Shown here piece by piece: positions 11,147 through 60,153 of a stretch of DNA of 64,000 bases. A program made the position numbers and the translations under genes. The stretch is from a virus. Its lineage: Duplodnaviria > Caudoviricetes. The DNA is taken from positions 96,001 to 160,000 of IMG/VR virus record IMGVR_UViG_3300031555_004710, one strand, 5' to 3'. Each line of letters starts with the position of its first letter. Positions within the stretch are counted from its first letter, which is position 1. The notes below the pieces were generated by a model that worked only from the letters and a program-made list of their open reading frames with translations, did not search any database and was not told where the DNA came from.

Positions 11147-11305
11147 ATGAAATACATTCCTATTTGGTATAATCAGGAGACGGTAGTAAAAGAAGATGCT
11201 CCAATTGAGGCGGCTAGCATGGAAGAAGCTAGAGATAAAGCATATATTAAATATAATGGAAACCCTCCAGCGCCTTTATTATCATTAAAGGAAGTGGGGT
11301 GTTAA
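11147..11305 (+). CDS. Small early protein (52 aa)
   Basis: Early motif at 11117 and RBS put the start at MKYIPIW; IEAASMEEA motif. Confidence 0.65.
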   Translation: MKYIPIWYNQETVVKEDAPIEAASMEEARDKAYIKYNGNPPAPLLSLKEVGC

Positions 11306-11703
11306 TAATGGTTGATGCTATTGATTACATTATGATAGTAGTTACATTTGCATTAATACTTGCAATGTTGTATTTTACAGCGGATAATTTCTTTAAAAGA
11401 ATTTATATACCATATAAAAAACAAATTATCGATTTGAATTTTGATTCGGCATTATTTATTCTTAAGACAATTATCAATAGTGAATTAGAAGCATATGAGA
11501 ATGATGTCTTTTTAAGTAAAGGAAGTATCACAAATTCAAATTTTGATAATTACTATAAAGATATAACTAGAAAGATTATTAAAAATATTTCTCCAGCTTT
11601 AATAAGTCATCTATCTCTATATATAACTGAGGATATGATATATACTATAGTTGCTAGAGCTGTTAAGAAATTTTTAACAGAAAAAATTACTGGCACAATT
11701 TAA
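11299..11703 (+). CDS. Single-TM membrane protein
   Basis: N-terminal hydrophobic helix IMIVVTFALILAMLYF. Confidence 0.75.
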   Translation: MLIMVDAIDYIMIVVTFALILAMLYFTADNFFKRIYIPYKKQIIDLNFDSALFILKTIINSELEAYENDVFLSKGSITNSNFDNYYKDITRKIIKNISPALISHLSLYITEDMIYTIVARAVKKFLTEKITGTI

Positions 11704-11717
11704 ATAAAAAAATAATA

Positions 11718-11789
11718 GTAAGATGACGGGAGTCGAACCCGCAACCTCCGGGAAAGCCCCGGCGCTCTACCACCTGAAGCTACATCTGT
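11718..11789 (-). tRNA. Non-canonical tRNA-like RNA (5-nt anticodon loop GCUUU, Lys-like; no CCA)
   Basis: Reverse complement ACAGATG TA GCTT CAGGTGGTA GAGC G CCGGG GCTTT CCCGG AGGTT GCGGG TTCGACT CCCGT CATCTTA; canonical D and T arms. Confidence 0.7.
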
Positions 11790-11797
11790 ATTACTAT

Positions 11798-11813
11798 TCA
11801 CAATAATAATATA
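11798..11813 (-). promoter_or_regulatory. Early-type promoter driving the tRNA-like RNA
   Basis: Reverse complement TATATTATtattgTGA immediately 5' of the element. Confidence 0.65.
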
Positions 11814-11839
11814 CTAATGAAAATTTATAATAATACGAT

Positions 11840-11873
11840 AAAAAAAGAAGGAACATAACGTTCCTTCTTTTTT
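11840..11873 (-). terminator. Terminator
   Basis: aaaaaaagaaggaac-ataac-gttccttctttttt. Confidence 0.8.
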
Positions 11874-12619
11874 TAAAATGTCTTTTTATAAGCCTTGTGC
11901 CACTTCTCAATTAATTCTGCAACGAGTAAATAATCTGTAGTGTGGTATTCTATAATATTTTCATAAATCCATTTTTTGAATTCTTTAAGGTTTCCAACGA
12001 AGTCATATCGGTGACACGCAATTGATAGCTTTCTATCACTATTTCTAAAAATGACTACATTCGCTCTATCTGGTAAGAAATTTGCTATTTCACGATAATG
12101 ATTGCGACTAAATATTTCAGCATTATTGGATATCATAAAATCCCCTCCAAGTCTAAGATCTCCACCAATTTTTGCGTCCCCATATATTTTTGTATTACCA
12201 AATATTGCTACATCCCCTTGTATATAGGCGTTATCATATATTCTAGCAACTCCATATATATTAGAAGTTCCCATAACAGATCCATCACCATGAATCCAAG
12301 CGTTCCCATGAATTTTTGCTTGCTGTGATATTTTAGCATTTTCATAAATGAATGCACGTTCAAATATCTTTGCAGAATCTATTATTAATGCATTTCCACT
12401 TACTTTTGCATTATCAAATACTTCAGCATCTTTAGCAACCCAGCAAGTTCCATTATGGCTTAGATTTTCTTCATTTTCAATCCATCCACCAAGGTCTCCC
12501 GCTGTTACTCCATATGTAAAGCATTTAAAATCTTTTAAAGCTTTTATTCTATATAAAGTTTTTCCGTACTCATTGACTTTAGTTTCATTAGTTAATTCAT
12601 ATTTTAACATTTGTATCAA
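11873..12619 (-). CDS. Left-handed beta-helix hexapeptide-repeat phage protein
   Basis: KYELT..GKTLYRIKALKDF..GDLGGWIENEENLS..CWV followed by AxV/IxG/DN hexapeptide repeats. Confidence 0.8.
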   Translation of the reverse strand: MIQMLKYELTNETKVNEYGKTLYRIKALKDFKCFTYGVTAGDLGGWIENEENLSHNGTCWVAKDAEVFDNAKVSGNALIIDSAKIFERAFIYENAKISQQAKIHGNAWIHGDGSVMGTSNIYGVARIYDNAYIQGDVAIFGNTKIYGDAKIGGDLRLGGDFMISNNAEIFSRNHYREIANFLPDRANVVIFRNSDRKLSIACHRYDFVGNLKEFKKWIYENIIEYHTTDYLLVAELIEKWHKAYKKTF

Positions 12620-12673
12620 GTCCTTTCATCTCATTTAAAAATAAATAAGAGAAGATAATGATATTATCTTCTC

Positions 12674-13432
12674 TTATTTTGCAATTGCTTTTAATGTTGG
12701 TAAGAATATCTTAGTATAATTATATCCTATATCAGTACATTCGATCATATCTTCATCAATCTCATCCATCATTATTTCGTTTCCATAAAGATTTACTCTG
12801 AATTTTGAAGATGATGTAAATTCTCGATATGCATTAAATGGTAGCTGCCTATTCTTATATGCTAAAGAATATTCTTTCATGAATTGATTAAGTTCTACCC
12901 AATTATTGCTTTCTTGCATCATAGTTGATATAAATGCCAGAGTTCCATCTTCATGTAACGACAATACTTCATCAGAAATACCTTTAACATCAATTATATC
13001 TTTTGAATAATAGAATTCATAATTTGGTATTAGTAGACAACCTGTATATGAATTCTTTTTAATAAATTTGACAGCGCCATTTCCAAATTCATTATATTTA
13101 ATATTTTTATTCTTAATAAAGACTGCATCTTTCTTAATAGATATTATATCAGTTTCATATTCCAGCATATTTACATTAATGAATTCTTCTATAATATCAG
13201 TAAAAGCTTTTTCAAGAGCAGTAGCAAACTCTCGATTTTTCTTAATTAACATACCAACTGATACTTCCCTATCTCTCTTGTCCATTTTTTCAAATTTTGA
13301 TATTAATTTTGGACTTGCTAAGTTATAATATTTCATTAGTGAAGTATTAGCAGAACGAATATCCCACTCCTCAATCATTTCATGATGTATGAATGGGATA
13401 TTTGTATTTGTTTTATTAATACTCATCGTCAT
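12674..13432 (-). CDS. Minimal family-B-like DNA polymerase (palm-only)
   Basis: Motif A-like EWDIRSANTS, motif C-like SIKKDAVF, downstream DVKGI; no exonuclease domain; 252 aa. Confidence 0.55.
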   Translation of the reverse strand: MTMSINKTNTNIPFIHHEMIEEWDIRSANTSLMKYYNLASPKLISKFEKMDKRDREVSVGMLIKKNREFATALEKAFTDIIEEFINVNMLEYETDIISIKKDAVFIKNKNIKYNEFGNGAVKFIKKNSYTGCLLIPNYEFYYSKDIIDVKGISDEVLSLHEDGTLAFISTMMQESNNWVELNQFMKEYSLAYKNRQLPFNAYREFTSSSKFRVNLYGNEIMMDEIDEDMIECTDIGYNYTKIFLPTLKAIAK

Positions 13433-59259: not shown

Positions 59260-60153
59260 ATGTCATTAGTTGAACTTTGTAGCAGCAACTATAATCATTT
59301 AAAATTAGACACTTTTGGAAAGAAATATTACCAACAATTTAACGGAAATAAGATTATCTGTGAGGAATGCGCGACAGTATATATCAATGATGTTGCTAAT
59401 AAGTTAACAGAAATTATCACTAGATATCTTGAGAGAATAAATATGAAAGATTTAGTATTAAGAGGTGATATTTATCGTGAGGAAGAATTAAATATCATTA
59501 CTAACGCAGCTATTCACGATTATATGCAATATATATTACCAATTAAATTCTCTATAAAAACTAAATTATTCTACGAAGAATATGTTTCAAATATAGAAGA
59601 TGAATATGAAGATAATTTATATAAGCTTGCAAGAGTTAATATAGAATCTATTAATTGTGTTGACCAATTTCCAGTATTTAATATGATATTGGATTTAAGA
59701 AGTATTGACACTACTGAGAGTATTAATGATGCTATTAAACAATACATATCCTCATACGTCGATTTATTATACTATGAACTAACAGATGAAGTAGTAAAAA
59801 TATTAATGACTCATTCTCCTAAAGAATATACTTCTACAGCATCATGTTCATGTTCTTCATCAGCACAGCAGTGTATTAGTTGTAATAGTTCCACAGTAAG
59901 TGAAAGCTATGTGTATAATAATAGGCATTTTTGTTTAAATTGTATGTACGATATAGTTGTAAATTTAGCAAAAGAAAATAACATTACTGATGAAGTTGGA
60001 TTAAGTATAGATAACCAATCATCAAATTCTACCAATTATGCAATAGTTAATACACCTGAGTGGAAAAGAACTGTTATTTCAAAATATCAAGCAAAAATGA
60101 GTTCGTTAGGAATTCCAATAAATATTACACATTATACAATGACTTTAAATTAA
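59260..60153 (+). CDS. Cys-rich (Zn-finger) late protein
   Basis: CEEC, CISC, CLNC; AACA-N6-TA at 59220. Confidence 0.7.
   Translation: MSLVELCSSNYNHLKLDTFGKKYYQQFNGNKIICEECATVYINDVANKLTEIITRYLERINMKDLVLRGDIYREEELNIITNAAIHDYMQYILPIKFSIKTKLFYEEYVSNIEDEYEDNLYKLARVNIESINCVDQFPVFNMILDLRSIDTTESINDAIKQYISSYVDLLYYELTDEVVKILMTHSPKEYTSTASCSCSSSAQQCISCNSSTVSESYVYNNRHFCLNCMYDIVVNLAKENNITDEVGLSIDNQSSNSTNYAIVNTPEWKRTVISKYQAKMSSLGIPINITHYTMTLN

Follow-up and report, generated by a model that had tools for sequence, protein, structure and literature searches.

The stretch of DNA analysed here (the window) comprises 64,000 nucleotides (nt), positions 96,001 to 160,000 of the IMG/VR virus record IMGVR_UViG_3300031555_004710, and carries on its minus strand, at 11700-11813, a tRNA-like element. 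On the evidence of sequence comparison, the virus is an AR9-like jumbo phage of the gut and the element is a conserved, accessory and non-decoding tRNA mimic, which we regard as a working tRNA look-alike and not as a broken tRNA gene because related phages keep the same oddly built RNA. It is strongly supported that the element is a self-contained early transcription unit, the predicted RNA of ~90-100 nt having the L-shape of a tRNA in which the D/T elbow and the core are intact. It is likewise strongly supported that both working ends of the tRNA are disabled, one being a GC hairpin with a 5-nt loop and the other, the acceptor, being sealed by the leader and the trailer and running straight into a U-tract terminator. 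The comparison of homologues strongly supports selection on the tRNA fold and not on any anticodon, and the distribution of the element shows that it is dispensable, that is accessory, at a hypervariable early locus. The original prediction, made from the letters of the window, had proposed a non-decoding tRNA mimic as opposed to a silent relic, and relatives that keep a covarying fold with closed ends uphold this proposal.

The 72-nt tRNA-like core lies at 11789-11718 on the minus strand. The parts of the unit, in window coordinates, are the following:

11798..11813, minus strand: early-class promoter TATATTATT-ATTG-TGA, with its core TATATTAT at 11806-11813
11799, minus strand: predicted transcription start G, 6 nt past the core, by analogy with G(+1) of AR9
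11791..11798, minus strand: 5' arm of the closing stem (leader), AAUAGUAA, from +2 of the predicted transcript, seen in the sequence and in the minimum free energy (MFE) and centroid folds
11783..11789, minus strand: acceptor 5' strand ACAGAUG, positions 1 and 2 unpaired
11764..11780, minus strand: D arm with G18 and G19 in the D loop and one bulged extra U, from the sequence and the homologues
11748..11762, minus strand: shrunken 'anticodon' arm CCGGG-GCUUU-CCCGG, five G-C pairs and a 5-nt loop
11726..11747, minus strand: variable loop AGGUU and T arm GCGGG / UUCGACU / CCCGU
11714..11725, minus strand: acceptor 3' strand, continuous into the 3' arm of the closing stem and without CCA
11721-11714, minus strand: 3' arm of the closing stem (trailer), UUACUAUU
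11702..11712, minus strand: U tract (7 U, A, 3 U) with the probable 3' end, directly at the stop codon of gene 11299-11703, which is convergent (plus strand)

The T arm, the variable loop and G18/G19 of the element are canonical, as are the inner five acceptor pairs. The anticodon arm is 15 nt long instead of the usual 17 and lacks both U33 and a purine at position 37; the 5-nt loop without U33 that had been proposed is read directly in the sequence. At the acceptor end, A1*A72 and C2*U71 are mismatched, the discriminator position is a C, as compared with A73 of tRNA-Lys, and the DNA flanks AATAGTAA and TTACTATT are complementary and followed by seven T. The element encodes no CCA; the genuine tRNAs of the phage do. 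The features first described from the sequence were found as stated for the T arm, the variable loop, the anticodon arm, the acceptor mismatches, the missing CCA, the flanks and the T tract, except that the D arm is not fully canonical: the 5' strand of its stem holds one extra U, a bulge according to the homologues, with A14 and the four stem pairs unaffected. This extra U is also present in one homologue (L182) and not in three others (L183, L298 and L299). As regards what characterizes a decoding tRNA, the element has neither a 5-base-pair (bp) stem joined to a loop of 7 nt that contains U33 and a purine at position 37 nor a 7-bp acceptor with a free 3' end, its 3' strand being base-paired to the leader as far as the U tract. 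As a fold, it lies above the threshold of the Rfam tRNA model RF00005 (34.4 bits at 11721-11787 on the minus strand; gathering score 29), and the genuine tRNAs of the same phage reach 65-70 bits. With default settings ARAGORN made no call on the element; at a lowered threshold (-ps) it reported Lys(ctt), a reading for which one G-C pair in the anticodon stem has to be opened. No transfer-messenger RNA (tmRNA) was called in the window by ARAGORN or Rfam.

The strongest evidence comes from the same locus in related phages. The neighbouring gene, for a protein of 250 amino acids (aa), has at least 60 relatives in public assemblies, which form a graded series, and about ten contigs with such relatives were compared. 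The interval 11704-12673 of the window, from this 250-aa gene to the convergent gene, proved to be a cargo-swapping hot spot which is either empty or occupied by unrelated genes of 133, 138, 219 or 248 aa, and these cargo genes each carry their own signals. The genes that frame or fill the slot in the window are:

11299-11703, plus strand: convergent gene of ~131 aa, the far border of the slot
11873..12619, minus strand: cargo gene for a 248-aa beta-solenoid protein, next to the unit, lineage-specific and absent from all relatives examined
12674-13432, minus strand: 250-aa neighbour gene, whose protein is the reference for the identity values of the relatives

The content of the slot is given below for each relative, with the identity of the 250-aa neighbour in brackets:

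Lineage of the window: 248-aa beta-solenoid gene and tRNA-like unit in the slot
L182 (87%): tRNA-like unit ahead of the 138-aa cargo gene
L176 (87%): 138-aa cargo gene without the tRNA-like element
L178 (77%) and L180 (65%): slot empty, with one shared terminator
P0125 contigs (77%): 133-aa cargo gene, known from the gene table alone
L183 (74%): tRNA-like unit ahead of the 219-aa cargo gene
L298 (53%): tRNA-like unit alone, at the same place
L299/L300 (51%): tRNA-like unit alone, at the same place
L371/L305 (39%): tRNA-like unit ~2.4 kb downstream

In relatives that lack the element, the shared terminator has its T tract where the U tract of the unit lies in the window. The promoter motif is exact in L182 and L298 and has one mismatch in L183 and L299. 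A normal 7-nt loop in relatives, which the original prediction had named as the finding that would speak against it, was not seen: no member of the family combines 5 bp with a 7-nt loop, the loops of the homologues measuring 4, 6, 6, 6 and 8 nt, and their acceptor ends are closed. The 'anticodon' arms have 5 bp and a 5-nt loop in the window and 6/6, 5/4, 5/6, 5/6 and 8/8 in the homologues, and the loop sequences are unrelated (GCUUU, CUAUGA, CGUU, CUUCCA, CAAAAA and AAUAGAAA). On the homologues, ARAGORN at its default settings returns 'tRNA-???' with 2-base anticodons. In every member the 5' and 3' ends are paired well past seven pairs (up to 17) and CCA is encoded in none; a U tract ends four of the six members, L182 having none and L183 a weak one.

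By contrast with these variable loops, the body of the tRNA is held constant. Five members were aligned with MAFFT without any fitting to the structure. In this alignment the 17 core pairs make up 85 cells, every one of which holds a standard pair (as against 44-55% pairing in controls in which the partner columns were slid), and changes on both sides occur in 9 of the 17, the T stem included. Selection keeps the D and T loops and, with compensatory changes, all four helices, which points to recognition of the tRNA shape, and such covarying helices across diverged lineages exclude a neutral relic. A covariance model (R1) built from the same alignment also matches ordinary tRNAs, so the criteria for counting a sequence as a family member were the length of the arm, closed ends and context; R1 finds a single copy in the genome of the window. 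A broad scan of IMG/VR for the promoter core together with the T loop returned mostly unrelated AT-rich phages, tmRNAs and normal tRNAs.

The original prediction had asked for a check against a 2-nt deletion introduced during assembly. An identical element is present in contigs from two other samples, L010 (ENA; 96.8% identity over 1586 nt) and L011 (Joint Genome Institute, JGI), and the same sequence in two independent assemblies rules such a deletion out. In the strain comparison the whole block of 494 nt is identical, the element and its flanks alike, and it consequently says nothing on selection. The closing stem is unlikely to be fortuitous: complementarity of an 8-nt leader and trailer in the same geometry occurs at 0.26% of random genome positions (p ~0.003). 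Here again, base composition sets the element apart, as only it and the genuine tRNA pair reach 59.7% GC per 72-nt window within a genome of 29.7% GC. The closing stem and the inner acceptor stem are present in both the MFE and the centroid fold of the predicted transcript, and the full cloverleaf with the closing stem has -26.1 kcal/mol compared to -27.6 for the MFE structure (within 1.5 kcal/mol). Thermodynamic z-scores for the single sequence were not significant, which is usual for tRNAs. An intron-split tRNA was considered and rejected: with the option -i, ARAGORN proposes a tRNA-Thr with a 1574-nt intron, a spurious call which reuses the T arm with a poor 5' half.

Regarding the origin of the element, blastn against GenBank phages gave no DNA match to it, exact-pattern scans of IMG/VR and metagenomes for the short anticodon arm found nothing, and an acceptor-based metagenome scan returned assorted normal tRNAs. 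Among tRNAs with shared D and T strands tRNA-Trp is the closest; in an unbiased set of neighbours no isotype was preferred for the body of the element, and no isotype of origin is therefore assigned. Two other deviant tRNAs deserve mention. On a contig from a marine metagenome that carries eight tRNA genes, a tRNA of phage type (L156:11173-11245) has a D arm, a T arm and an inner acceptor nearly identical to those of the element; its loop is of 7 nt with C33 and C37, its top acceptor pairs are mismatched, it scores 42 bits with Rfam, and it may be a related deviant phage tRNA. At L242:1380-1530, on an IMG/VR contig of 48% GC, lies a stand-alone deviant tRNA with the anticodon AAA, U37 and two acceptor mismatches, whose leader pairs with its trailer and whose 3' acceptor strand doubles in a GC-rich UUCG terminator hairpin, a different way to close the acceptor end.

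To what expression class does the unit belong? A scan for the sigma-70 consensus gave no promoter upstream of the element. A motif specific to the phage was obtained de novo: k-mer analysis of the intergenic DNA yielded TATATTATT-N4-TGA, which occurs in 26 copies in the genome compared to 1.05 +/- 1.3 expected from Markov simulations, and which is oriented toward genes, including those of topoisomerase II and DNA ligase. On the matrix of this motif family, the copy upstream of the element reaches 30.1 bits and exceeds 20 of the 24 other sites. The early promoter of AR9, mapped experimentally, is AAATATATATTAT-N6-G(+1) and is read by the injected virion RNA polymerase (PMC5312081). The core of the phage motif equals the core of this AR9 early promoter (PMC5312081; AR9 annotation), and the AR9-type early consensus is found at 11799-11813 on the minus strand as TATATTAT-TATTGT-G, with the G start 6 nt downstream; the predicted start G11799 is 1 nt ahead of the leader arm. 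The exact early promoter reported upstream of the element is thus confirmed, 'early' being meant by homology with AR9, and by this analogy the unit would be early-class. The late motif of AR9, AACA-N6-TA, is enriched upstream of genes (46 sense vs 12 in the antisense control) and precedes structural genes; in the form AACA-N6-TAA it stands before the genuine tRNA-Gln/tRNA-Pro pair (genome 211,849-212,050, minus strand; L001:1490-1700), and it is also found before tRNAs in related IMG/VR phages. Since the late motif precedes the genuine tRNAs and the early motif the mimic, the tRNAs appear to be late-class and the mimic early-class. Downstream of the element, its strand is free of open reading frames (ORFs) for 870 nt. 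On the upstream side the unit is bounded by a further signal:

11839..11875, no strand assigned: strong bidirectional terminator of the upstream gene, which separates the unit from the leftward operon

The loop of this terminator is reverse-complemented between strains (window 11853-11860 vs L010:1196-1203), a hairpin-loop flip.

The reading that we prefer, identity of the element included, is that the RNA acts in trans, mimics the body of a tRNA and occupies a factor of the host; we consider it a good possibility which nevertheless falls somewhat short of even, and the trans-acting mechanism taken alone is held more tentatively than that. The virion RNA polymerase would make the RNA in the first minutes of infection, and the RNA would accumulate early as a stable closed species. 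It would then act in trans, mimicking the tRNA body through the elbow and core preserved by selection, and might occupy or titrate a host factor that reads tRNA by its shape and not by its anticodon or 3' end. The candidates for it are a defence or stress factor directed at tRNA, or an enzyme, for instance RNase P, that processes or modifies tRNA. With its ends closed, the RNA would stay out of translation and be shielded from exonucleases and anticodon nucleases.

Several observations weigh against this proposal. The element is absent from the equivalent site of L176, L178 and L180, which makes it dispensable, and the family comprises six members, five of them aligned. When R1 was run on 48 AR9-like IMG/VR records, one record had the element and only ordinary tRNAs were matched otherwise; no element was found in AR9 and four other cultured relatives. 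In L182 and L183 the unit precedes the cargo gene, an arrangement that fits a cis-acting leader equally well. The start site, the 3' end and the early timing are all predictions from AR9. Furthermore, no phage-encoded partner was detected: a profile search with PF05731 (Ro/TROVE) gave no match in the 237-kb phage genome although control genomes matched, and RtcB, the CCA-adding enzyme and an Rnl2-type ligase (PF09414) are absent from it as well. The search for the Rnl1 family (PF09511) was uninformative, as control genomes were unmatched too.

The most serious alternative, which we consider unlikely although well worth weighing, is that the unit acts in cis as a structural module of a hyperplastic locus, whether as a cap or stabiliser of transcript ends, a terminator or insulator against convergent transcription, an RNase P or Z signal, or, as DNA, a conserved recombination anchor for swapping cargo, in the manner of the promoter early stem-loop (PeSL) elements. 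PeSLs are composite early promoter/terminator motifs found at indel boundaries (PMC4122927; PMC2839356), and those of T4-type phages likewise join an early promoter to a stem-loop or terminator bordering variable cargo genes. The unit is always beside a variable cargo slot (a 248-, 138-, 219- or 133-aa gene, or nothing), it forms the 5' leader of the cargo gene in L182 and L183, and in the window it takes the position of the relatives' terminator hairpin, just ahead of the T tract. However, a simple hairpin would suffice for such functions, and relatives without the element do use one terminator, whereas the D/T loops and the four tRNA helices are kept with compensatory changes. PeSLs are moreover short, simple and multi-copy hairpins; the element adjoins a cargo-swapping site, yet is a ~75-nt tRNA fold with conserved tertiary nucleotides and is present in one copy per genome.

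A second alternative, of low probability, retains the tRNA-like RNA and gives it a non-ribosomal job after processing: the RNase P of the host would cut off its leader, the trailer would be trimmed and CCA added, and the product would serve as a scaffold (Y RNA-like), a primer or a substrate. Both the window and L371 have a 4-nt bulge or mismatches at the canonical site of RNase P, which is compatible with this idea. The bacterial Y RNAs (D. radiodurans Yrn1; YrlA, RF02553; some of them phage-encoded) resemble the element in being stand-alone and non-decoding, in mimicking the T and D arms and in having a long helix that closes the ends. The tRNA-like domains of YrlA and Yrn1 have non-canonical anticodon loops and can be cleaved by RNase P and tailed with CCA: in Yrn1 the 'anticodon' stem is of 5 bp with a 6-nt loop and the termini pair, and YrlA of M. 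smegmatis is cut by RNase P and receives a CCA tail (PMC4201824). In architecture, Yrn1 is the nearest counterpart of the element. Against processing, L299 and L182 have 12-17 continuous closing pairs that are unbroken at position 1, and no Ro-binding motif was seen in the stem. Membership of the YrlA/Y RNA family itself was rejected, the score with RF02553 being 13.3 bits (E = 6.8) vs a gathering score of 69 and the phage having neither a TROVE gene nor RtcB. YrlA also differs in its permuted topology and in an acceptor closed by a loop, while the element differs from Y RNAs in its phage early promoter and in that no Ro-binding module was seen.

That the element is a decaying tRNA pseudogene with a leftover promoter and terminator appears very improbable. 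The low Rfam score is what would be expected of one, as are the lesions (the D-arm insertion, the short loop and the acceptor mismatches) and the lack of the element in some close relatives. Every core pair is nevertheless kept, with the covariation reported above, in lineages whose neighbour protein is only 39-53% identical; each of the members has, independently, neither a 7-nt loop nor a free acceptor end, the element shows no decay toward AT in a genome of 30% GC, and the closing stem is non-random. The specific decoy for Lys-anticodon nucleases of the PrrC type, which the original prediction had offered as an example, has in our judgement only the slightest chance. PrrC-type anticodon nucleases read the anticodon loop itself, which counts against this decoy. 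Phage tRNAs have been proposed to evade anticodon nucleases by loop changes (PMC10264068), and ARAGORN -ps does read CUU in a forced 7-nt loop; the actual loop is however of 5 nt and closed by a G-C pair that would have to be opened, the loops of the homologues are unrelated, the discriminator is a C, the body resembles tRNA-Lys no more than it does other isotypes, and no gene for tRNA repair was found in the phage. For want of an anticodon or of a free NCCA end, the element is an unlikely decoy for synthetases or for the specifier and discriminator contacts of T-box riboswitches, decoys which had been suggested alongside. A tRNA that is unusual yet still decodes can practically be dismissed, since the Rfam score above the gathering threshold that speaks for it stands against the absence of a 7-nt loop, U33 and R37, five acceptor pairs, no CCA, no free 3' end and the loop lengths of the homologues. 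Even together, the pseudogene, the Lys decoy and the decoding tRNA carry a small probability at most.

Other tRNA mimics are known outside phages: tRNA-like RNAs of murid gammaherpesvirus, the 3' tRNA-like structures of plant viruses and mascRNA are non-decoding or partly tRNA-like folds that exploit the host tRNA machinery, and they differ from the element in host, transcription and processing. Like phage tRNAs, the element clearly derives from a class I tRNA gene. Phage tRNAs often have altered anticodon loops (PMC10264068); in the element it is the length of the loop, and not just its sequence, that is wrong, the acceptor is sealed and CCA is absent. It is early-class, whereas the real tRNAs of this phage and the tRNA of AR9 are late-class, and unlike phage tRNA pseudogenes it is conserved with covariation. 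The early units of AR9 have the identical core TATATTAT-N6-G, with the conserved start 6 nt downstream, and the late motif AACA-N6-TA is also common to both phages. By contrast, AR9 shows no such tRNA-like gene and carries one normal tRNA-Asn behind a late-type motif.

The parent IMG/VR record is 236,671 bp long with ~30% GC. Its proteins are ~24-32% identical to those of the Bacillus phages AR9 and PBS1, Yersinia phage phiR1-37, Staphylococcus S6-like jumbo phages and Fusobacterium phages. Although classed as linear and free of end repeats, the record repeats its positions 35-160 in the last 126 nt (236,546-236,671), which indicates that the ends of the contig overlap. Elsewhere in the genome, at 202,448-202,880 (L161:149-600), an ORF-free stretch of ~400 nt lies behind the same early promoter and ends in a U tract and terminator; its fold has -107 kcal/mol (z = -5.8 vs shuffles) and it has no Rfam match. 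Near-identical palindromic terminators, AGATAGAACC-N4-GGTTCTATCT, are perfect at genome positions 10,748; 13,501; 206,728; 225,889 and 226,628 and imperfect at 59,450, and look like a small family of repeated terminators. The motif GGTTCTATC was considered as a promoter and rejected, being a set of palindromic terminators.

Phage tRNA genes are usually seen as codon supplements or as nuclease-resistant replacements. The element is a different case, a tRNA-derived RNA that appears to be conserved for its shape only, does not decode and is preceded by a promoter of the class used by AR9 within the first minutes of infection. The finding adds to the evidence for many non-coding RNA genes in this phage lineage, and tRNA finders silently drop or mislabel genes of this kind. 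With their natural differences in length, the anticodon arms and closing stems of the family already provide a mutational series. It is conceivable, although we hold this only tentatively, that AR9-like jumbo phages of gut and rumen deploy a dedicated early 'dead-end tRNA', in which selection keeps no more of the tRNA than its elbow and core and both functional ends are closed, and that this RNA counters, as a factor of anti-defence or takeover, a host system which senses or processes tRNA according to its shape. Should a host factor bind it, the RNA would be a decoy or inhibitor of a tRNA-reading system and also a handle for finding that system. If this proves true, the element would be the phage counterpart of protein mimics of DNA such as Ugi or Ocr, with tRNA as the molecule that is mimicked.

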